From Alphaproteobacteria bacterium (lineage in GTDB: Bacteria; Pseudomonadota; Alphaproteobacteria; MPNO01), in NCBI GenBank assembly GCA_964291675.2, contig OZ219866.1, positions 1,856,001 through 1,920,000 on the forward strand: a stretch of DNA of 64,000 bases, given 5' to 3'. The first letter of the stretch is position 1. Every line of letters starts with the position of its first letter. Under the pieces are notes generated by a model that searched no databases, was not told the DNA's origin, and saw nothing but the letters and a program-made list of their open reading frames with translations. A program made the position numbers and the translations under genes. Below are positions 55,094 through 64,000 of the stretch, piece after piece.

Positions 55094-57427
55094 TCAAGTC
55101 GCCGGATCGGCGCGGCACATCCGGGCCAGCGCGTCCGGGCGGATCGGGATCTCCGTCACCTCGACCGCGAAGGGGGCGAGCGCGTCCTCGACCGCCGCGG
55201 CGACCGCCGCGGCCGCCGGCACGGTGCCGCTCTCGCCCACCCCCTTGACGCCGAGCGGGTTCAGGCCGGTCGGCGATTCGAGGTGCCGGATGGCGATCGG
55301 CGGCAGCTCGACGGCGCCGGCGATCGTGTAGTCGGCGAGCGTCGCGGTGAGCGGCTGCGCCTCGCCGTCGAAGACGATGCGCTCCAGGATCGCGGTGCCG
55401 ATTCCGTGCGCGACGCCGCCCCGTACCTGGCCGTCGACGATCAGCGGGTTGATCATGCGCCCGCAATCGTGCACCACGACGTAGCGCAGGATCGCCACGT
55501 GTCCGGTCTCCGGATCGGCCTCGACCTCGGCGACGTGGCATCCGTTGGCGTAGCTCAGCGCATCGAAGGGCAGCGCCGCGGTGGCCTCCAGCCCGGGGGA
55601 GGCGCCGGCGGGGAGCGCGTAGCCGGGCGTGCCGTAGACCGCGTTGGCGAGCTCGCCGAAGCCGACGGAGAGCTCCGCCACGCCGCGCACCCGGGCGCAC
55701 CCGTCGACGAGCTCGATGTCGTCGGGCGCCGCTTCGAGGCGTAGCGCGGCGAGGCTGCGCAGCTTGTCCGCCACCTCGCTTGCCGCCGTCAGCGCCGACG
55801 AGCCGGCATTGACCGCCTGGCGGCTGGCCGAGGCGCCGATGCCGATCGCCATCGCGGCGGTATCGCCCATCACGATGTCGATCGACGCGGGGTCGACGCC
55901 GAGCCTGTCGGCGCAGATCTGCGCCAGCATGGTCCGCGTCCCCTGGCCGATCGCCGTCGCGCCGGTGACCAGGCTCACCCGCCCCGACGGGGCGACGCGC
56001 ACCGTCACCGCCTCGAACGGGCCGCGCCCGGTCCCCTTGACGTAGTTGGCGAGCCCGATGCCGAGATGGCGCCCTTCGGCGCGCGCCGCCGCCTGCCGCG
56101 CCCGGAACCCGTCCATCCCGGCGGCGTCCAGCGCGGCGTCGAGGCAGGCCGGGTAGTCGCCGCTGTCGAGCACGATGCCCGAGCCGCTGCGCGTCGCAAG
56201 CGGCCGCGCATAGGGCATCTCCTCGGCGGCGATGAAGTTGCGCCGCCGCACCTCCTCGCGCGCCAGCCCGGTTGCGGCGGCGATGCGGTCGACGATGCGC
56301 TCCATCGCGAAGATCCCCTGCGGATGCCCGGCGCCGCGCACCGGTGTGGTGGGCACCTTGTTGGTCACCGCCACCCGCACCCGCATCCGGTAGGCCGGCA
56401 AACGGTAGGGGCCGGGCACCACGGTCGCGGCGTTGTAGGAGAGGTTCAGCCCGCGCGCGGTATAGGCGCCGTGGTCGTGGATCATCTCGCCGCGCAGGGC
56501 GAGCAGGCGGCCGTCCGCGTCGGTCGCCGCCTCCATCTCCCAGTACTGGTCGCGCTCCTGGGTGGTGGCGGTGAAGTGCTCGCGCCGGTCCTCGATCCAC
56601 TTGACCGGACGGCCGAGACGCCGCGCCGCGTGGGCGATCACGATGTCCTCGGGGTAGACCACGAGCTTGGGCCCGAAGCCGCCGCCGAGATCGGCGGCGC
56701 GGACCGCGATCCGGCTCTCGTCGAGCCCGAGCGTCGCCACCAGGGCGCGCAGCGCGCCATGCGGCGCCTGGCTCGACAGAAACAGCGTCAGCCGGTCGTC
56801 GAGCGGGTCGGGTACGGCGACGGCGCCGCGGCACTCGATGGCGAGGCCGAGCCCCTTGTGCTGCTTCAGCGAGACCCGCACGCGATGGGCGGCGGCGGCG
56901 AAACCCGCCTCGACGTCGCCATAGCCGATCTCGTACTCGGCGAGCAGGTTGTCGTCGAGATGGCGATGCGCGCGGGGCGCGCCCTCGGCCAGCGCCTCGC
57001 TGCAGTCGGAGGCGGCGGGCAGGGCGCGGTAGTCGATTTCGACCGCCGCGGCCGCGTCCTCGGCGGCGTAGCGGCTGTCGGCCAAGACCACGGCGACCGG
57101 CTCGCCGACATGGCAGACCTCGTCCCGGGCGAGGATCTGGCGGTCCAGTATGTGGCGGTAGGACGGGCTCGGGAGCGCCGTCACCAGCCGTTCGGCGGCG
57201 AGATGCGGCGCGATCTCGGCATGGCCCAGCACCGCCGCCACCCCGGGCCGCGCGGCGGCGGCCGCGCTGTCGATGCCGGCGATCCCGGCATGGGCGAAGG
57301 GGCTGCGGACGAACGCCGCGTGCAGCATCCCCGGCAGGCCGATGTCGTCGACGAAGCGCCCGGCGCCGCGCAAGAGCGCCGGGTCCTCCAGCCGCTTGAT
57401 CGGCTTGCCGATCAGCGTGGAGCTCAG
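55094..57427 (-). CDS. Xanthine dehydrogenase family molybdopterin-binding large subunit (CoxL-like); probable CTG start
   Basis: IGKPIKRLEDPALLRGAGRFVDD, GGGFGPK, WIEDRRE, PVRGAG, GQVRGGVAHGIG, GVKGVGESG. Confidence 0.88.
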   Translation of the reverse strand: MSSTLIGKPIKRLEDPALLRGAGRFVDDIGLPGMLHAAFVRSPFAHAGIAGIDSAAAAARPGVAAVLGHAEIAPHLAAERLVTALPSPSYRHILDRQILARDEVCHVGEPVAVVLADSRYAAEDAAAAVEIDYRALPAASDCSEALAEGAPRAHRHLDDNLLAEYEIGYGDVEAGFAAAAHRVRVSLKQHKGLGLAIECRGAVAVPDPLDDRLTLFLSSQAPHGALRALVATLGLDESRIAVRAADLGGGFGPKLVVYPEDIVIAHAARRLGRPVKWIEDRREHFTATTQERDQYWEMEAATDADGRLLALRGEMIHDHGAYTARGLNLSYNAATVVPGPYRLPAYRMRVRVAVTNKVPTTPVRGAGHPQGIFAMERIVDRIAAATGLAREEVRRRNFIAAEEMPYARPLATRSGSGIVLDSGDYPACLDAALDAAGMDGFRARQAAARAEGRHLGIGLANYVKGTGRGPFEAVTVRVAPSGRVSLVTGATAIGQGTRTMLAQICADRLGVDPASIDIVMGDTAAMAIGIGASASRQAVNAGSSALTAASEVADKLRSLAALRLEAAPDDIELVDGCARVRGVAELSVGFGELANAVYGTPGYALPAGASPGLEATAALPFDALSYANGCHVAEVEADPETGHVAILRYVVVHDCGRMINPLIVDGQVRGGVAHGIGTAILERIVFDGEAQPLTATLADYTIAGAVELPPIAIRHLESPTGLNPLGVKGVGESGTVPAAAAVAAAVEDALAPFAVEVTEIPIRPDALARMCRADPAT

Positions 57428-57894
57428 CTCTCCCGCCCCCGCTCGGTGACCACGCGCTCGAACGCCGCCAGGGTCTCCTCGCTGACATGGTGCTCCAGGC
57501 CCTCGGCATCGGCGCGCGCCGCGTCCTCGCTGACGCCGATCGCCTGGAGGAAGGCGACCACGATCTGGTGCCGCCGCCGCGAGGCCTCGGCGATGCGCCG
57601 CCCCTCGTCGGTCAGGAAAATCGCGCGATAGGGCTGGGTGGTGACCAGCCCGCTCTGCTGCAGCCGCGCGACCGTCTTGGTGACGCTCGCATGGGTCACG
57701 CCGAGCCGGCGCGAGATGTCGGCGGAGCGCGCCTCGCCGGTCGAGTCGATGAGGTCGGCGATCAGCTCGACATAGTCCTCGGCGATCTCGGTCTGACGCG
57801 CCAGCCGGGTCTGGCGGTGATGCCCGGCCTGCTCGTCGGGCTCGACGAGCACCGGCGCCACCTTCGCCGGCCTCCTGCGCGTGTCCTTCGCCAC
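57424..57894 (-). CDS. mntR: Manganese-binding transcriptional regulator (DtxR/MntR family)
   Basis: AEDYVELIADL...EARSADISRRLGVTHASV...PYRAIFLT...RRRHQIV...DAEGLEHHVSEETL. Confidence 0.92.
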   Translation of the reverse strand: MAKDTRRRPAKVAPVLVEPDEQAGHHRQTRLARQTEIAEDYVELIADLIDSTGEARSADISRRLGVTHASVTKTVARLQQSGLVTTQPYRAIFLTDEGRRIAEASRRRHQIVVAFLQAIGVSEDAARADAEGLEHHVSEETLAAFERVVTERGRES

Positions 57895-57946
57895 CCGGGT
57901 CCCCCGCCTTGCCGCGCCGCGCCGACTATGCCGGAGCGCGAGCCGC

Positions 57947-57989
57947 TTGACAATTCTGGGCCGGGGCCAAATAAGTTAGCCATGGTTAA
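57947..57989 (+). promoter_or_regulatory. sigma70 promoter and MntR/DtxR-like operator for the cytochrome-ABC operon
   Basis: TTGACA at 57947-57952; near-palindrome TTAGCCATGGTTAA at 57976-57989 in an AT-rich island between divergent mntR and the operon. Confidence 0.6.
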
Positions 57990-58016
57990 ACAGTTCAGCG
58001 CGGGGAAAGACTGACA

Positions 58017-59849
58017 TTGGCACGCAACCGGGTTCGGGGGACGGCCCGGCCGGCGGCCGCGCTGCTCTGCCTCGCCGTCCTGCTGGCGGGCACGGCCTCG
58101 GCCCATGTGGCGAGCCGCGCCGAGTGGCACCCGCTGGCCGCCGCCTATCTCGACGCGGTGTTCGCGAGCCGGATCGACCCGGTCGACTGGCGGGGGATCG
58201 CGCGGCGCTACGACGGCACCGATCCGGCGTTCCGCCATGTCGGTTCCGAGCCGGCCTTCGCCGCGCTCGCCCGGCTCGCCCGCTTCGCCGGGACCGATCC
58301 CGGCGCGGCGATCCGCCGGGCGATCGCCGCGCGCGACGCAGGCGCGCTGAGGCAGGCGGCGGCGCGGGCCAACGCGACCGCGCTCCGCGCCGGGCTGGAG
58401 AGGGTTCGCGGGCTGCTGAACAGGCCGCGCGAGGCGCGCGCCGAGCTTCGTTCCGCCCGCCTCCTCTATCGCGGCTTCGAGACCGGCCTGCGCGCCCGCG
58501 ATCCGGCGGCGCACCGGCGTCTCGGGCTCGCCTGGCTCTCCCTCGCCACCCTGCTCTCCGGCGGGCAAAACGGGGCGGAGGCGGAACGCCTGATCGGCTT
58601 GCTGGCGGGCGAGATCCGCGCCCGGTTCGAGGCGGCGGCGCCGCCCTTGCCGCCATCCGCCCGGCTGCCGCCGGGCGGCGCGCTGGTCGAGCAGCGGCCG
58701 CTGCCCCGCGCGGTGCTCAATTTCGAGCGGCGCGGGGTGGAAGAGAAGACGCTCTTCCTCGTCGCCTATGGCGACATGCTGTTCGATTCGCCGGAAATTT
58801 TCGGCGCGCCGGCCCGCAGCCTCGGCCTCGCCTGCTCGTCCTGCCACAACCGGGGCGACGTCAACCGGGCGCTGTTCGTCCCCGGGCTCAGCCGCCGCCC
58901 CGGCGGGATCGACGTCGACAACGGCTTCTTCAACCCGCGCGGCAATGACCGGCGGTTCGACCCGCTGGACACGCCGAGCCTGCGCGGCATCCGCTTCACC
59001 GCGCCCTACGGGCGGGACGGGCGCACGGCGAGCCTGCGCGAATTCGTCCGCAACGTGATCGTCGGCGAGTTCGGCGGCGCGGAGCCGACCCCGCTGATGC
59101 TCGATGCCCTGCTCGCCTACATGAACGAGTTCGACTTCCTGCCGGCGCCGCTGCTGGCGCGCGACGGGCGCCTCAACGAGCGCGCGGGCGCGGCGGCGCG
59201 GCGCGGCGAGGCGATCTTCAACCGCCCCTTCCCCGGCATGGCGGGCCGGTCGTGTGCGACCTGCCACGTGCCGGACGGCAATTTCATCGACGGGCGGCGC
59301 CACGACATCGGCTCGGTCGCGGCCTCGATGCCCGGCGCCCGCGACGGCGCGCTGGATACCCCGACGCTCCTGGGCATCCGCTACACCGCGCCCTATTTCC
59401 ACGACGGCTCGCTGGCGACGCTCCCCGCCGTGGTCGCCTGGTTCGACCGGCGCTACCGCCTCGGCCTCGATGCGGGCGAGCGGGCCGACCTCGCGGCCTA
59501 TCTGGAGGCGGTCGGCACCGGGGAGCATCCCTTCGAGGCGTTCGACGGCACCAACACGCGCTTCCGGCTGGGCTTCGAGGAGGCTTCGACCTTCCTGTCG
59601 ACGCTGGACACGCTGATCCCGGCGCGCGACCGGCGCCATGCCTTGCTGCTGCTCGCCACCGTCGGCCGCGATCTGCGCTCCGATGCGGCGGCGATGGACA
59701 ACATCGCGGCGCTCGGCCGGGTGTCCGAGCTGGCCGCGAAGATCGACGCCATCTCGGACGCGGTCTCGGCGGAGGACTGGGCGGCGGCCGAGCGGCTGTG
59801 GGCCGGCTACAAGCAGGCGGAGGCGCGTCATGCGGCCGAGCTCTACTAG
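58017..59849 (+). CDS. Secreted di-haem cytochrome c peroxidase (bCcP/MauG superfamily)-like protein with extra helical domains
   Basis: Sec signal ending ASA; CSSCH (58833-58847) and CATCH (59253-59267); DTPSLRGIRFTAPYGRDG and DTPTLLGIRYTAPYFHDGS..DLAAYL. Confidence 0.82.
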   Translation: MARNRVRGTARPAAALLCLAVLLAGTASAHVASRAEWHPLAAAYLDAVFASRIDPVDWRGIARRYDGTDPAFRHVGSEPAFAALARLARFAGTDPGAAIRRAIAARDAGALRQAAARANATALRAGLERVRGLLNRPREARAELRSARLLYRGFETGLRARDPAAHRRLGLAWLSLATLLSGGQNGAEAERLIGLLAGEIRARFEAAAPPLPPSARLPPGGALVEQRPLPRAVLNFERRGVEEKTLFLVAYGDMLFDSPEIFGAPARSLGLACSSCHNRGDVNRALFVPGLSRRPGGIDVDNGFFNPRGNDRRFDPLDTPSLRGIRFTAPYGRDGRTASLREFVRNVIVGEFGGAEPTPLMLDALLAYMNEFDFLPAPLLARDGRLNERAGAAARRGEAIFNRPFPGMAGRSCATCHVPDGNFIDGRRHDIGSVAASMPGARDGALDTPTLLGIRYTAPYFHDGSLATLPAVVAWFDRRYRLGLDAGERADLAAYLEAVGTGEHPFEAFDGTNTRFRLGFEEASTFLSTLDTLIPARDRRHALLLLATVGRDLRSDAAAMDNIAALGRVSELAAKIDAISDAVSAEDWAAAERLWAGYKQAEARHAAELY

Positions 59850-60696
59850 GCGCCTCGCGCTCGCGCTTGCGCTCGCCGCGCTGGCCGCCTGGCCGGCGGC
59901 GGCGGACCGGCCGCTCACCGTCGCCTTCGTGCCGCAGGAGAACCCGGAGAAGCTGCTCGGCGACGTGCGCGCCATCGGCGCCTATCTGGAGGGCGCGACG
60001 GGACGGCGGATCGAGCCGCGCCTCACCATCGACCACGCGGCGGCGATCGAGAGCCTCGCGGCCGGGCGCGCCGACATCGCCTTCATGGGCGCGCTGCCCT
60101 ATGTGATGGCGCGCTCGCGCATCGGCGCGCGGGCGCTGCTGTCGGAGGTCTATCGCGGCAAGCCGAGCTACCGGGGCGCGGTGTTCGTGCGCCGGGATGG
60201 CGGGATCGCGCGGCTGGCGGAGTTGAGGGGCAAGTCCATCGCCTTCGCCGACCCGATCTCGGAATCGGGCTTCCTCTACCCGCTCGACCTGTTCGTCGAG
60301 GCCGGGCTGCTGGCCGCGCGCGACGACCCCAGGGCGTTTTTCGGCGAGGTCTATTTCGCGGGCGGCTACCAGCAGGCCATCCAGGCGGTGGCCAACGGGC
60401 TGGTCGACGCCGCCGGGGTGAGCATCTACGCGACGCTGCTGCTCGATGCCGGCCAGCGCGGCGCGGTCGCGGCGATCGCCCGCACGCCGCCGATCCCGTC
60501 CCATGTCGTGGTCGCCCGGGACGGGCTGGAGCCCGGCCTCCGCACCGCCTTCGTCGAGGCGATGCTGGGGCTCAACGCGCCCGCGAGGCGGCATCTGCTG
60601 AAACACGTCTATGGGCCGGACGGCTATGTCAGGCCGGACCACGCGGCCTATGACCGGGTCGCCGCGATGGCGCGCAAATACGGGCTGATCCGGTGA
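59830..60696 (+). CDS. PhnD/PtxB-fold ABC substrate-binding protein with an atypical ligand set
   Basis: Signal peptide, VAFVPQENP, ADIAFMG, LRGKSIAFADPISESGFLYP, AVANGLVDAA, TPPIPSH. Confidence 0.82.
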   Translation: MRPSSTRRLALALALAALAAWPAAADRPLTVAFVPQENPEKLLGDVRAIGAYLEGATGRRIEPRLTIDHAAAIESLAAGRADIAFMGALPYVMARSRIGARALLSEVYRGKPSYRGAVFVRRDGGIARLAELRGKSIAFADPISESGFLYPLDLFVEAGLLAARDDPRAFFGEVYFAGGYQQAIQAVANGLVDAAGVSIYATLLLDAGQRGAVAAIARTPPIPSHVVVARDGLEPGLRTAFVEAMLGLNAPARRHLLKHVYGPDGYVRPDHAAYDRVAAMARKYGLIR

Positions 60697-61517
60697 GCGC
60701 CGACGCGCTTCGCCTGTCGGGTCTCAGGGTCCGCTACGCCGCCGATGTGGAGGTTGCGCTGGCGATCGACGCGCTCGCGATCGCCGCCGGCGAACGCGTC
60801 GCGGTGATCGGGCCGAGCGGCTCCGGCAAGACCACGCTGTTGCGCGCGGTTCACGGGCTGGTCGCGCCGGAAGCCGGCACGGTCATGCTGGACGGCGTGG
60901 ACACGGCGTCGGCGGCGGCGCGCAGCCGCGTCTTCCGGCGCCGTCATGCCGCGGTGTTCCAGGAGTTCCAGCTCGTCGAGCGCGCCTCCGTGCTCGGCAA
61001 CGTGCTGTGCGGCCGGCTGGGCCACGCGCCGGTGCTGCCGAGCCTGCTCGGCCTGTTCGGCGCCGCCGACCGGGAGGCGGCGCTGGCGGCGATCGGGGCG
61101 ACCGGGCTCGGCGACTACCCGCGGCGCCGCGTCGACACACTGTCGGGCGGGCAGCGCCAGCGCGTCGCGGTCGCCCGCGCGCTCGCCCAGGCGCCGTCGC
61201 TGATCACCGCCGACGAGCCGGTCAGCAATCTCGACCCCGTCATCGCCGACGACATATTGCGCGCGCTCATGGGCTCGGCGCGCGATCACGCGATCACCGT
61301 GCTCGCCGCCGTGCATCACCCGGCGCTCGCCACCGCGCATGCCGACCGGGTGATCGGGCTCGCCGGGGGCGAGATCGTCCATGACAGCGCGGACGGCGCG
61401 CCGCTCGACGCATCGGCGCTCAGGCGGATCTACGGCCGCAGCGTGGCGCCGCAGATCGTCCAGGACGTGACGCCCCGCGAAGCCGGCGATGCGCGCTCCC
61501 CTCGCAACGTGGCGTAG
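60693..61517 (+). CDS. PhnC-like ABC transporter ATP-binding protein
   Basis: GPSGSGKT, FQEFQLVERASVLGNVLCGRL, LSGGQRQR, ADEPVSNLDP. Confidence 0.88.
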   Translation: MSADALRLSGLRVRYAADVEVALAIDALAIAAGERVAVIGPSGSGKTTLLRAVHGLVAPEAGTVMLDGVDTASAAARSRVFRRRHAAVFQEFQLVERASVLGNVLCGRLGHAPVLPSLLGLFGAADREAALAAIGATGLGDYPRRRVDTLSGGQRQRVAVARALAQAPSLITADEPVSNLDPVIADDILRALMGSARDHAITVLAAVHHPALATAHADRVIGLAGGEIVHDSADGAPLDASALRRIYGRSVAPQIVQDVTPREAGDARSPRNVA

Positions 61518-62265
61518 CAGCCTCGGCCGCGCGGCGGTGGCTCTCGGCATCGTCGTCGCGATCGCCTGGGCCTGGGCCGGGACCGGGTTCGATCCGGCCG
61601 CGCTCGGCATCGGCCTGCCCCGGCTCGGCGACTTCCTCGCCCGCATGGCGCCGCCCGATCTCAGCATCGCCGGCGTGGTGTTCCGGGCGATGCTGGAGAC
61701 GGTGCAGATCGCGCTGCTCGGCACCTTCCTCGGCGCTGTGCTCGCAATCGGGCTCGGCCTGCTGGCGGCCGCCAATTTGACGCCCGCCTGGGTCCACCAG
61801 CCGGTCAAATGGCTGCTCGGCGCGATCCGCGGAATCCCGGTGATCCTGCTCGCGCTGATGTTCGTCAGCGCCTACGGGCTCGGCCCGCTGCCCGGCGTGG
61901 CGGCGATCGCGCTGCATTCCTCGGGCATGCTGGGCAAGTTCTACGCCGAGGCGTTCGAGGCCGCCCGGCCCGGCCCGGTCGAGGCGCTGAGGACCGCCGG
62001 CGCGGCCTGGCCGCAGATCGTCCGCTTCGCGATGCTGCCCCAGATCGCCCCCGAGCTCGCCCGCGACACGCTGTTCCGCTTCGAGCTGAATCTGCGCGAA
62101 TCCCTGGTCCTCGGCCTGGTCGGCGCAGGCGGGATCGGCTTCTACATCCAGCTCTACGCCCGCGCATTCCACTACGACAAGGTGGCGACGCTGACGCTGG
62201 TCGTGCTGGCGATGGTGGTGCTGGTCGAGCAGGCGAGCGTGCTCGCACGGCGGCGGCTGAGCTGA
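61489..62265 (+). CDS. PhnE-like ABC transporter permease
   Basis: MLETVQIALLGT, GLGPLPGV, GMLGKFYAEAFE, RFELNLRESLVLGLVGAGGIG. Confidence 0.88.
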   Translation: MRAPLATWRSSLGRAAVALGIVVAIAWAWAGTGFDPAALGIGLPRLGDFLARMAPPDLSIAGVVFRAMLETVQIALLGTFLGAVLAIGLGLLAAANLTPAWVHQPVKWLLGAIRGIPVILLALMFVSAYGLGPLPGVAAIALHSSGMLGKFYAEAFEAARPGPVEALRTAGAAWPQIVRFAMLPQIAPELARDTLFRFELNLRESLVLGLVGAGGIGFYIQLYARAFHYDKVATLTLVVLAMVVLVEQASVLARRRLS

Positions 62266-62289
62266 GCGAGGAGAGTCCGCGCGGCAACG

Positions 62290-62397
62290 CGTCCTTCGAT
62301 ACGCGGCTTCGCCGCTACTCAGGATGAGGTTGGAGGGTGGCGGTCCAGACTTCCCCCTCATCCTGAGTAGCCGCCGAAGGCGGCGTATCGAAGGACG
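62290..62397. repeat. Inverted pair of empty family-1 REP-like units between convergent genes
   Basis: CGTCCTTCGATACG..CTACTCAGGATGAGG (62290-62329) and its inverse (62356-62397). Confidence 0.82.
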
Positions 62398-62403
62398 CCC
62401 CGG

Positions 62404-62946
62404 CTAGCTCGCGATCTGCGGGCCCATCTGCTTGACCGCGCCGGTCTCCAGGTTGAAGGCGATGCGCGGGATCACGTCCAGATTGGTTCCCGTCACCCGG
62501 ACGAAGCGCGCGTCGTCGGGATAGTCGATCGAGTGGATCTTGCCGTCCGCATAGATCCCGGCATGCCCCGGCGTCAGCCGGTAGGATTTTTCCGGCCGGA
62601 CCTCGCCGCGGCCGGGATCCGAGCCGTCGTCGAGCCGCTCCCACTCGGTCATGTCGGTGTATTTGGTCGCCTGGCCGTAGATCGCCCAGGAGGCGCCGTG
62701 GTCGTGCGGCGGCGAGACCCGCGCGCTCGCGTTGATGTGGGACAGCACCTGGAAGCCGAGATCGGGATCGTCGTAGAGCACGCGGACCCCGCGCTCGACG
62801 CCCGGCCCGCAATATTCCTCGACGAACTCGGGCACCCGGAGCAGCCGTTCGAGGTCGCGGCGGACCTTCTCGCGACCGCCGGGGCCGGGGTCTTCGCCGA
62901 GATGCCTGCGGCAGTCCTGACAGAACTCTTCCAGCGTATAGGCCAT
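62404..62946 (-). CDS. Cysteine dioxygenase-like cupin protein
   Basis: LYDDPDLGFQVLSH...SPPHDHGASWAIYG...IHSI; three-His cupin pattern. Confidence 0.7.
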   Translation of the reverse strand: MAYTLEEFCQDCRRHLGEDPGPGGREKVRRDLERLLRVPEFVEEYCGPGVERGVRVLYDDPDLGFQVLSHINASARVSPPHDHGASWAIYGQATKYTDMTEWERLDDGSDPGRGEVRPEKSYRLTPGHAGIYADGKIHSIDYPDDARFVRVTGTNLDVIPRIAFNLETGAVKQMGPQIAS

Positions 62947-63025
62947 GGGTCGTGCTCCCTCGATCCTCGCGGTCTCGTGCGATCTATCCTGCCACAGGGT
63001 TGGGGAACGGTGCTAGTCTCGGCGC

Positions 63026-64000
63026 ATGGCCCGGCCCGTCTCATCCGACCCGCCGCCCGCCGGCAAGCGCGCGCAATTCGCCTGGTGTCTCTACGACTGG
63101 GCCAATTCGGGCTTCCCGACGGTCATCGTCACCTTCGTCTTCGCCGCCTATTTCTCGCGCGCGGTAGCCGAGAACACCATCCAGGGCACCGCCGCGTGGG
63201 GCCACGCGCTGGCGATCTCGGGGGTGGCGATCGCGATCGTCAGCCCGATCCTGGGCTCGATCGCCGACCGCACGGGACGGCGCAAGCCCTGGCTCGGCGT
63301 CTTCGCCGCGATCACCATCGTTGCCTCGGCGCTGCTCTGGTACACCCGTCCCGAGCCGTCCTACGTGCTGTGGGCGCTGGTCTTCTTCGCCATCGCCAAT
63401 ACCGCCTTCGAGATCGGCAACGTGTTCTACAACGCGATGCTGCCGGGGCTGGCGGCGAAGGAGCGGATCGGCCGGCTGTCGGGCTGGAGCTGGGGGCTCG
63501 GCTATATGGGCGGGCTCTCTTGTCTCGGCCTGCTGCTGGTGCTGTTCGTCCAGGCCGAGACCCCGCTGTTCGGGCTCGACAAGGAGGCGGCCGAGCACAT
63601 CCGCATCGTCGGGCCGATGGTGGCGCTCTGGTTCGCCGTGTTCGCCATCCCGATCTTCCTCTGGACCCCCGACGAGGCGGGCAGGCGGACGACGGCGAGC
63701 GCGGCGATCCGCGAGGGGCTCGCCCAGCTCGCCGGCACGCTGCGCGAGATCAGGCGCCACGCCAATATCGCGCGCTTCCTGCTCGCCCGGCTGTTCTATG
63801 TCGACGGGATGAACACCATGTTCGCCTTCGGCGGCATCTACGCCGCCGGCACGTTCGGCATGTCGTTCGCCGAGATCATCCAGTTCGGCATCGCGCTCAA
63901 CGTCACCGCCGGGCTGGGCGCCGCCGGCTTCGCCTGGCTCGACGACCGCATCGGCTCCAAGCGCACCGTGCAGATCGGCATCTTGGGGCTGATCGCCTTC
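63026..64000 (+). CDS. UMF1/ATG22-like MFS transporter (runs off window edge)
   Basis: AWCLYDWANSGFPTVIVTFVFAAYF, SPILGSIADRTGRRK, VFYNAML, GWSWGLGYMGG, FYVDGMNT. Confidence 0.88.
   Translation, partial: MARPVSSDPPPAGKRAQFAWCLYDWANSGFPTVIVTFVFAAYFSRAVAENTIQGTAAWGHALAISGVAIAIVSPILGSIADRTGRRKPWLGVFAAITIVASALLWYTRPEPSYVLWALVFFAIANTAFEIGNVFYNAMLPGLAAKERIGRLSGWSWGLGYMGGLSCLGLLLVLFVQAETPLFGLDKEAAEHIRIVGPMVALWFAVFAIPIFLWTPDEAGRRTTASAAIREGLAQLAGTLREIRRHANIARFLLARLFYVDGMNTMFAFGGIYAAGTFGMSFAEIIQFGIALNVTAGLGAAGFAWLDDRIGSKRTVQIGILGLIAF

Follow-up and report, generated by a model that had tools for sequence, protein, structure and literature searches.

A PhnD/PtxB-fold binding protein with a rewired anion pocket and a di-haem partner: a candidate MntR-repressed manganese acquisition system

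The periplasmic binding proteins PtxB, PhnD, HtxB, AioX and ArrX (PF12974) are the described proteins closest to the one considered here, which resembles them in fold, in the hinge tyrosine, in both serines of an S-x-S loop and in its PhnC/PhnE-like ABC components. The portion of PMC5700983 cited here gives Y55, Y100, S130 and H160 as the phosphite ligands of Te_PtxB, with a capping tyrosine, Y208, held by D22; this numbering agrees with that of the 5jvb chain, and T131 and S132, which that portion does not name, were assigned by counting along the 5jvb alignment. The cluster A-I proteins PsaA, MntC and SitA (PF01297) share with the present cassette the logic of MntR/Mur repression, operators of the mntH/sitABCD type and a mixed His/carboxylate site; the cassette differs from them in an unrelated fold, in another type of ABC permease and in its redox partner, which is absent from cluster A-I. 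The known bacterial Mn importers are NRAMP proteins, cluster A-I ABC systems, MntX, ZIP proteins and porins, and FbpABC provides a precedent for a metal ion moved by a type I ABC importer. With FbpA and transferrin, the binding protein has in common the class II two-lobe fold and the generally known His/Glu/Tyr type of ligand chemistry, but it lies outside their sequence family, its regulators are of the Mn and not the Fe type, and the likeness of ligands is seen at the level of residue types. In the MauG-preMADH and MbnH-MbnP pairs, a di-haem protein of the CCP/MauG family is likewise encoded beside its periplasmic partner, and MbnH makes kynurenine in MbnP. Here, in contrast, the partner is an ABC binding protein and the enzyme carries additional N- and C-terminal helical domains, through which docking is predicted; it scores far under the equivalog cut-offs of both MauG and MbnH. 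The portion cited here of a 2022 review on importers of Mn (PMC9334652) covers NRAMP, PsaBCA-type ABC systems, ZIP proteins, porins and T6SS, and nothing PhnD-like; a literature search found no paper that connects a protein of the PhnD family with both a di-haem peroxidase and regulation by Mn.

The gene under study is the second of a four-gene operon with tight overlaps, located on the plus strand of the window (the whole stretch of 64,000 nucleotides that was analysed). The operon encodes a secreted di-haem protein of 610 aa (58017..59849), the binding protein (59830..60696), a PhnC-like ABC ATPase (60693..61517; ABC_tran, 103 bits), the start of which reaches 4 nt into the stop end of the binding-protein gene, and a PhnE-like ABC permease (61489..62265), whose gene shares 29 nt with that of the ATPase. 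The ATPase scored 223 bits against TIGR02315, below the cut-off of 266, and the permease 256.6 against the PhnE equivalog TIGR01097, above the cut-off of 216.7; by this score the membrane component is much like that of common phosphonate transporters.

The binding-protein ORF runs from an ATG at 59830 to a stop at 60694-60696 and encodes 288 aa, its start codon being backed by an N-terminal alignment with 25 homologues. It matched PF12974 with 195 bits (Pfam cut-off 27) and TIGR01098 with 147.4 (NCBIfam cut-off 112.05), and fell short of the PhnD equivalog TIGR03431 (142.5 bits against 261.1). By sequence, it matched the PtxB entry 5o2j with an E-value of 3e-25. The AlphaFold model (pLDDT 89.7) had the same entry as its top PDB match in Foldseek (E 6.7e-25, TM 0.70/0.77), and aligned with HtxB 6ghq at TM 0.80/0.86; as modelled, the two-lobe class II PhnD/PtxB fold is retained. 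The PhnD family includes binders of phosphonate, phosphite, hypophosphite, arsenite and arsenate as well as a sterol transporter protein. The only other binding-protein match in Pfam was SBP_bac_11, with 21.1 bits and thus under its cut-off of 25; the cluster A-I Mn/Zn profile PF01297 gave no match in Pfam.

The preliminary description of this DNA had proposed, by eye, that three ligand positions of PhnD/PtxB proteins are replaced here. Alignment with HMMER to the sequences of three solved PtxB proteins upheld this equivalence, pairing D-H69 with D-Y, S-E145-S with S-T-S and G-G-Y180 with G-x-H, and the codon coordinates that had been given for the three residues were exact. H69 (60034..60036) thus occupies the position of PtxB Y55, E145 (60262-60264) that of T131 within the S144-E145-S146 segment (60259..60267; S130/T131/S132, the S-T-S loop of PtxB), and Y180 (60367..60369) that of H160, so that the proposed rewiring of the anion pocket is borne out at the phosphite-contacting Tyr, Thr and His of PtxB. 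Two further substitutions were found beyond that list: H225 (60502..60504) stands at the capping Y208, and Q36 (59935..59937) at its Asp partner D22. What remains of the anion site are the two serines S144 and S146 and the hinge tyrosine Y114 (60169..60171; PtxB Y100), and the phosphite/phosphonate ligand set of PtxB and PhnD (the D-Y tyrosine, S-T-S, the STS-H histidine and the Asp-held capping tyrosine) is missing from the protein. By alignment, the carboxylate of E145 falls on the N-cap position of the helix with which PtxB binds its anion. From homology to the PtxB ligand contacts we infer that H69, E145 and Y180 are gathered in the cleft; as judged from the sequence, a pocket lined by H69, H225, E145, Y180, Y114, S144, S146 and Q36 would offer a ligand set for a metal cation rather than for an oxyanion.

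All six of H69, E145, Y180, H225, Y114 and Q36 were invariant among 26 sequences of 59-94% identity. Of 160 cassette binding proteins, 113 had exactly the nine-residue signature Q-H-Y-S-E-S-Y-Q-H (type A), and five more deviated from it solely by a Gln at position 69. Sister types of the same cassette carried the signatures Y-Y-Y-S-S-S-D-E-H (25/160) and Y-Y-Y-D-M-S-D-E-H (17/160). Since 5 of the 118 type-A proteins have Gln at position 69, and the sister types have Tyr there, H69 appears dispensable within the family. A carboxylate was always present in the cassette pockets and shifted among positions 145, 144 and 180/181; such relocation across sister subfamilies suggests that an acidic site of the cation type has been selected for.

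Divergent from the operon lies a gene for a Mn-sensing DtxR-family repressor, mntR (57424..57894, minus strand), the product of which has the Pfam domains Fe_dep_repress and Fe_dep_repr_C and scored 199.2 bits against the NCBIfam MntR equivalog NF008273 (cut-off 153). The operon promoter read from the sequence (57947..57975, plus strand) consists of a -35 TTGACA (57947-57952), a 17-nt spacer and a -10 AATAAG (57970-57975); a strict promoter scan passed over it, the -10 being without the final T. An MntR-box-like operator, AAGTTAGCCATGGTTAAACA (57973..57992, no strand assigned), overlaps the -10 and the transcription start. It agrees with the published MntR boxes of enterobacteria, AACATAGCnnnnGCTATGTT, and of R. 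capsulatus mntH, AATaTAGCCAaGGCTACAcT, as given in the cited parts of PMC1698941 (text and Table S5). The box over the -10 is conserved in relatives, whose operators include perfect palindromes, AACTTAGCCAAGGCTAAGTT in locus L012 and AAGTTAGCCATGTCTAACTT in L052, L076 and L079. The operator core with at most one mismatch had five occurrences across the genome (4.8 Mb), one of them at the operon promoter; of the others, three fall within long ORFs or at their ends and one in a gap without a called gene, and no further MntR regulon members were found among them. With an MntR equivalog adjacent and a box at its promoter, the operon would belong to the MntR regulon. An Rfam search at E <= 1 over 56500-63500 for riboswitches or other RNA elements gave two chance-level matches only.

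Of 80 genome loci, 24 had a divergent MntR homologue adjoining the cassette, and the one of these homologues that was scored against NCBIfam (L052) passed the MntR equivalog (192.6 against 153). The layout TTGACA-17-(A/T)A(A/G)ATAAG was conserved in the aligned intergenic regions of 24 loci. Of 71 assessable loci, 30 had an MntR-box-like palindrome between -350 and +80 relative to the start of the di-haem gene, where about 2 would be expected from a background of 75 sites per 996 kb. Sites resembling the Mur box (MRS) were found in 10 of the 71, about 0.7 being expected (background 20 in 605 kb); nine of these loci are labelled Rhizobiales (Hyphomicrobiales, Hoeflea, Bosea, Pelagibacterium) and the tenth, L033, Geminicoccaceae. 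The Rhizobiales sites resemble the Mur boxes of mntH and sitABCD. Mur boxes also resemble Fur boxes, and regulators of the Fur and DtxR families can sense Fe. DtxR/MntR-like repressors also accompany the cassette in Dadabacteria and Thermodesulfobacteriota, and in seven loci a DtxR-family repressor with a FeoA-type domain is encoded on the same strand; the one of these that was scored (L016) had the Thermus-type MntR as its best NCBIfam match, with 176 bits against 99 for DtxR. In Bosea (L037) the cassette has Nramp/mntH and a Fur-family gene as neighbours, and in L065 it has Nramp alone. At least one Mn-type signal was present in 47 of the 71 assessable loci and none of those signals in the other 24. 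As read from these genes and sites, the regulators point to Mn rather than Fe, and Mn-responsive regulators and operators at the operon in several lineages support a metal ligand independently of the pocket.

The di-haem partner comprises an N-terminal helical domain, a CCP/MauG-type core with the motifs C273xxCH and C413xxCH, both invariant in 31 sequences, and a C-terminal four-helix bundle. It belongs to the di-haem CCP/MauG superfamily by its match to PF03150 (CCP_MauG; 37.8 bits, cut-off 25.6), also matched RoxA-like_Cyt-c in Pfam, and scored 40 against the MauG equivalog (cut-off 443.85); a protein atlas placed it in generic "cytochrome c peroxidase family" clusters only. In its model (pLDDT 69) the helical domains are good and the haem core is poor. 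Foldseek returned nothing at E <= 0.001 for it, the best matches being bCCPs at 0.05-0.2, and VIA-align found the poorly modelled haem core to resemble the YhjA CCP (Z 8.1). With the same program, the C-terminal domain resembled four-helix bundles of the PsbQ/CyanoQ/cytochrome b562 type (Z about 8), and catenin-like bundles were matched by the N-terminal one; these likenesses are in the range of common helical arrangements, and no function was taken from them.

Gene order was kept across at least eight phyla, the loci being spread over Alphaproteobacteria, Thermodesulfobacteriota, Dadabacteria, Acidobacteriota, Anaerolineae/Caldilineaceae, Spirochaetia, Methylomirabilales and Akkermansiaceae. 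The carriers, 257 species in all, include the culturable Roseovarius lutimaris DSM 28463 and Pseudosulfitobacter pseudonitzschiae DSM 26824 as well as isolates of Bosea and Hoeflea. A di-haem homologue lies immediately 5' of the binding-protein gene in 77 of the 80 genome loci, the three misses being contig ends; the ATPase was found in 79 and the permease in 76, its misses again being contig ends. In a further 80 loci from metagenomes, retrieved with an alignment of the sister types that returned type-A proteins as well, the di-haem gene was upstream wherever the upstream sequence allows judging. In a sample of 400 other genomes of the class the cassette is rare: a search with the helical domain of the partner matched none of them.

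Complex prediction for the di-haem partner and the binding protein yielded ipSAE values of 0.71, 0.71 and 0.70, compared to 0.00 for the best of three controls; at least 83% of contacts were shared between runs, and the pLDDT of the partner was at least 84. Among solved complexes, 116 of 157 reach this ipSAE mark, as do 2 of 215 mismatched pairs, which is a rough guide, as the present runs used their own alignments and two haems. We know of no solved complex of such a kind, and it is therefore unlikely that the score reflects a memorised structure. The predicted interface covers residues 67-68, 70-71, 141-142, 174-179 and 181-182 of the binding protein, which flank H69, E145 and Y180, and, within residues 138-182 of the partner, includes the invariant G170, W173 and L174. 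As predicted, the partner docks over the binding cleft by its helical N-terminal domain, not by its haem core.

Compared with the PtxB/PhnD group, the cassette combines Mn-type regulation and an obligatory di-haem partner with a lack of nearby genes for phosphonate or phosphite catabolism: none were found among the scanned window neighbours (Pfam, NCBIfam), and genome-wide, where PhnJ (PF06007) alone was looked for, it was not found in the host genome (93.7% complete). Nramp was likewise not found in that genome, which encodes two ZnuA-family (PF01297) proteins elsewhere than in the operon that score as Zn-type or ambiguous. Among 41 relatives, which are non-independent samples, 17 had the binding protein and none of those had Nramp; the three with Nramp were all without the binding protein. 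In the present Defluviicoccus-like genus the cassette was present in 12 of 12 genomes searched and Nramp in none of the 12.

Taken together, we favour, with some reserve, the reading that the operon serves the acquisition of Mn under repression by MntR, with a partner for redox chemistry or maturation, and that the ORF is the binding protein of its Mn-regulated ABC importer. The preliminary description had proposed a metal ligand by analogy with the Fe(III)-binding FbpA. The metal part of this proposal gains from the carboxylate in the rewired pocket and from the Mn-type context; the likeness to FbpA stops at ligand chemistry, the protein being no member of the FbpA family and its regulators being of the Mn type. 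A carrier of Fe(III) in the manner of FbpA or transferrin, with the di-haem protein as a periplasmic ferroxidase comparable to EfeB/EfeO, would suit the His, His, Glu, Tyr, Tyr ligand set, as Tyr-rich sites are more usual for Fe(III) than for Mn(II); transferrin lobes occur among the fold matches of the model from rank 44 down, and the regulators of Fur and DtxR families could be iron sensors, the Fur-family matches at the loci all being under their NCBIfam cut-offs. We regard this as unlikely, given that the scored adjacent regulators of the window and L052 pass the MntR equivalog and not DtxR or Fur, that the operator agrees with published MntR boxes, that the Rhizobiales sites match Mur boxes of mntH/sitABCD with mntH itself as the Bosea neighbour, and that no ferric-binding-protein family in Pfam or NCBIfam matched above cut-off.

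Slightly less probable still is a pair of the MbnP/MbnH kind, in which the di-haem enzyme would turn a pocket residue into a new ligand for Cu or another metal. The best NCBIfam match of the partner is indeed the MbnH family, weakly so (51.7 against a cut-off of 362.85), the predicted complex is located at the cleft, and five loci have copper or cytochrome-maturation neighbours (SCO1/SenC in L017, L038 and L056, the last also with a MerR-family gene; CcmH/CtaG/DsbD in L061; YtkA and an HlyD-type gene in L065). Against these five stand the Mn-type signals of 47 of 71 loci; moreover, the mature binding protein (residues 27-288) contains no Trp, and a His-brace in the partner was discarded as its N-terminal His after AxA is not invariant (about 19/29, with Asp or Thr in about 10/29). 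Equally improbable, in our estimate, is a small non-metal solute, be it an unusual oxyanion or an organic cation or zwitterion, with the Mn regulators marking a metabolic need under Mn limitation and not the cargo. The range of the PhnD family, from several oxyanions to a sterol transporter protein, the PhnE/PhnC-like permease and ATPase, and the retention of S144, S146 and Y114 would accommodate it; the carboxylate at the helix N-cap, the loss of the O3-contacting His and the lack of a PhnJ match in the host genome speak against it, and it leaves the regulators and operators of three Mn-associated families and the obligatory di-haem partner unexplained.

If the operon serves Mn acquisition, scarcity of Mn would release MntR from the operator at the -10, and the four operon genes would be made. 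The N-terminal helical domain of the partner would sit at the mouth of the binding cleft, where the partner presumably performs an oxidative step, either altering the bound metal's redox state or maturing the pocket, the latter option being modelled on the action of MauG and MbnH upon their partner proteins. The binding protein, loaded with what would be Mn, would then hand the metal to the PhnE-type permease, in what we take to be the direction of import. A more specific version, which we hold to be rather doubtful, is that the partner oxidises Mn(II) in the pocket to Mn(III), which is trapped in a transferrin-like Tyr/His/carboxylate site. If so, trapping would be open only to a redox-active metal, and Mn would therefore be selected over Zn(II) and Cu(II), although these bind more tightly; the loading of transferrin with Mn(III) is an existing precedent, of which this would be a bacterial counterpart and, in ABC import, a new principle of metal selectivity. 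The sister types with moved carboxylates could in that event be variants for other metals or redox potentials.

The cassette is probably an undescribed Mn uptake system, and a PhnD-fold, di-haem-assisted system would then constitute an additional class of Mn importer. It could explain the Mn supply of organisms which have MntR or Mur yet no recognisable Mn importer, such as the Defluviicoccus-like genus. That an ABC binding protein is so strictly paired with a MauG-like enzyme, and is predicted to contact it, also raises the question of whether periplasmic selectivity for metals is achieved by redox chemistry or by protein maturation. At present the family is annotated as "phosphonate ABC transporter", a label that would mislead metagenome surveys of the phosphorus cycle.

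The binding-protein gene (59830-60696, forward strand) encodes a 288-aa protein with a signal peptide, which clearly belongs to Pfam PF12974 (195 bits) and falls by profile search into the broad TIGR01098 subfamily; its 142 bits against the PhnD equivalog lie below the cut-off of 261. A phmmer search against all PDB sequences returned PtxB, the phosphite-binding protein, as the top match (5o2j, E 3e-25). Three independent alignments to PtxB placed D-H69 opposite D-Y, S-E145-S opposite S-T-S and G-G-Y180 opposite G-x-H. In Bisson et al. 2017 (PMC5700983), where residue numbers are those of chain 5jvb, the phosphite ligands of PtxB are Y55, Y100, S130 and H160, and the cap is Y208, held by D22. 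By alignment and this numbering, Y55 corresponds to H69, Y100 to Y114, H160 to Y180, the cap Y208 to H225 and its holder D22 to Q36; the loop S130/T131/S132, in which T131 and S132 were placed by counting along the 5jvb alignment and not from the paper, corresponds to S144/E145/S146. Because they map onto PtxB ligand positions, the His, Glu and Tyr substitutions claimed in the preliminary description are real and correctly placed, and the alignment adds two more, H225 and Q36. Being homologous to PtxB contacts, the pocket residues are expected to face one common cavity. The AlphaFold model, built from 26 homologues, was confident (pLDDT 89.7), and its best PDB matches were PtxB, ArrX, AioX, HtxB and PhnD, with transferrin lobes appearing from rank 44 on.

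At least 1278 relatives of the binding protein were found at E <= 1e-10 (90% clusters), and 6458 at E <= 1e-3 (50% representatives). H69, E145, Y180, H225, Y114 and Q36 are invariant in 26 sequences of 59-94% identity, as are E37/N38, E106, Y108, R109, D141 and Q181/Q182. Pocket signatures, read at positions 36, 69, 114, 144-146, 180, 181 and 225 in 160 binding proteins from cassette loci, sorted into discrete types. That of the window protein, QHYSESYQH (type A), was found in 113/160; QQYSESYQH (5/160: Spirochaetia loci L059, L069 and L077, metagenome loci L118 and L130) is a type-A variant with Gln for His at 69 and the other signature positions unaltered. Both sister types, found among metagenome loci L083-L162 (representatives P0124, P0126, P0127, P0130 and P0131), have the same di-haem partner gene upstream: YYYSSSDEH with near variants (25/160) combines Y36/Y69, S-S-S and D180-E181, and YYYDMSDEH (17/160) has D144-M145-S146 and D180-E181. 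H225 and Y114 are common to all types, and each type carries at least one lobe-2 carboxylate, at 145, 144 or 180/181; the sister types could be adapted to other metals. Y180 and H225 recur in a wider clade of representatives, which has Tyr at 69 and lacks a carboxylate at 145.

The four genes of the cassette overlap on the forward strand: by 20 nt between the di-haem gene (58017-59849) and the binding-protein gene, by 4 nt between the latter and the ATPase gene (60693-61517), and by 29 nt between the ATPase gene and the permease gene (61489-62265). Family alignment yielded 80 genome loci, with 257 relatives confirmed. A di-haem homologue lay directly upstream of the binding-protein gene in 77/80, the three exceptions beginning at a contig end; the ATPase gene was present in 79/80 and the permease gene in 76/80. 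Record titles assign these loci to Alphaproteobacteria (Defluviicoccus, Rhodobacteraceae, Hoeflea, Bosea, Geminicoccaceae and others) and to Thermodesulfobacteriota, Dadabacteria, Acidobacteriota, Anaerolineae/Caldilineaceae, Spirochaetia, Methylomirabilales and Akkermansiaceae. Another 80 metagenome loci, fetched by sister-type alignment, included proteins of each sister type as well as more of type A; all those with upstream sequence had the di-haem gene there. The cassette is rare: searching 400 genomes, sampled evenly across the class, with the partner's helical domain gave no match. A PF13557 (Phenol_MetA_deg) outer-membrane barrel adjoins it in six Acidobacteriota and Dadabacteria loci (L022, L035, L043, L050, L057, L067) and may be the outer-membrane entry for its cargo. 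In three loci from Geminicoccaceae and relatives (L033, L039, L051), a DUF4399 protein gene follows the permease gene.

Upstream of the operon lies mntR (57424-57894, reverse strand; MntR equivalog, 199 bits vs 153). The forward operon promoter between them (TTGACA-17-AATAAG) is followed by an MntR-box-like site, AAGTTAGCCATGGTTAAACA (57973-57992). The sigma-70-like mntR promoter (57925-57953, reverse strand; TTGTCA-17-CATAGT) overlaps it on the opposite strand at the -35 elements, so that the two promoters stand back to back and share a control region. This arrangement of promoter and box is kept in the aligned intergenic regions of 24 loci, in some with perfect palindromes (AACTTAGCCAAGGCTAAGTT in L012, AAGTTAGCCATGTCTAACTT in Rhodobacteraceae loci). 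According to Rodionov et al. 2006 (PMC1698941), the enterobacterial MntR box is AACATAGCnnnnGCTATGTT, and alphaproteobacterial boxes upstream of mntH include AATaTAGCCAaGGCTACAcT; the sites at cassette loci share this architecture. A divergent MntR homologue was found in 24/80 loci, and a same-strand DtxR-family repressor in six (tblastn) plus L018 (Pfam). Of 71 assessable loci, 30 had a box-like site within -350..+80 of the di-haem start (background, 75 sites in 996 kb) and 10, nine of them labelled Rhizobiales, had a Mur-box-like site (background, 20 sites in 605 kb). In Bosea L037 the cassette has both Nramp and a Fur-family gene as neighbours; L065 has Nramp there, and L040 has a Fur-family gene downstream of the permease gene. 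Altogether, 47/71 assessable loci carry at least one manganese-type signal and 24/71 none.

In the 4.8-Mb host genome (two contigs, 93.7% complete, 6.7% contaminated), the MntR-box core occurs at five sites with <=1 mismatch, of which only the cassette's is in a promoter beside a transporter. Neither Nramp nor PhnJ was found in this 93.7% complete genome, which encodes two ZnuA-family proteins, one ZnuA-like and one ambiguous. Among 41 relatives (host counted), 17 carry the binding protein, including 12/12 in the genus, and none of these 17 has Nramp; the three genomes with Nramp all lack the binding protein. As the relatives are not independent, this exclusion is merely suggestive. In the neighbouring family f5, one genus has Nramp (3/4 genomes) without the cassette, and in another genus the single genome carries the cassette without Nramp.

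Two CxxCH motifs (C273 and C413) are invariant in the 610-aa partner, which scores above the Pfam CCP_MauG cut-off and far under the MauG and MbnH equivalog cut-offs. Its helical domains at both ends were well predicted and its haem core poorly. Co-folding partner residues 30-610 with binding-protein residues 27-288 and two haems gave ipSAE values of 0.71, 0.71 and 0.70, compared to 0.00 for the best of three controls, with at least 83% of contacts in common and partner pLDDT of at least 84; the ipSAE mark, reached by 116/157 solved complexes and 2/215 mismatched pairs, is a rough guide here, as our runs used their own alignments and ligands. The predicted interface comprises partner residues 31-36, 138-182 (with invariant G170, W173 and L174) and 554-558, and binding-protein residues 67-68, 70-71, 138, 141-142, 174-179, 181-182, 185-192 and 202-211, segments that flank H69, E145 and Y180. 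The model supports, but does not show, a complex at the cleft mouth. Di-haem CCP/MauG proteins carry out H2O2-driven oxidation of a partner; given this family chemistry we favour an oxidative role, in which the partner would oxidise something at the docked binding protein, either the bound metal or a pocket residue being matured.

The cassette is most likely a manganese acquisition system that MntR or Mur would repress, and whose PhnD-fold protein would now bind metal. One rival is that the ligand is Fe(III). Another is a copper cargo with MbnPH-like maturation. Copper/cytochrome-maturation genes (SCO1/SenC, MerR-family, CcmH/CtaG/DsbD, YtkA with HlyD-type) flank the cassette in five loci of some Rhizobiales (L017, L038, L056, L061, L065) and sit uneasily with a pure manganese reading. 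The third rival is a non-metal ligand. The closest relatives of the binding protein are PtxB and PhnD, whose defining ligand motif it lacks, and it is predicted to work unlike them; it belongs to neither the FbpA family nor the cluster A-I family.

Metal ABC import as such is of a known kind. An importer like this one is absent from the list in the consulted part of a 2022 review of manganese homeostasis (PMC9334652), and our literature search on a PhnD-family protein with a di-haem peroxidase and manganese regulation found no description of such a system. The docked di-haem partner would, if its role is confirmed, be a categorically new component. Beside the cassette, a 180-aa ORF (62404-62946, reverse strand) of no Pfam or NCBIfam family is conserved at this place in L001 and L002, the two closest relatives, and in no others. 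The mntR of Mesorhizobium sp. BNC1 is called 'enigmatic' by Rodionov et al. (PMC1698941), its sole MntR box lying upstream of mntR itself; a divergent cassette copy beside it, if present, would explain that lone box.
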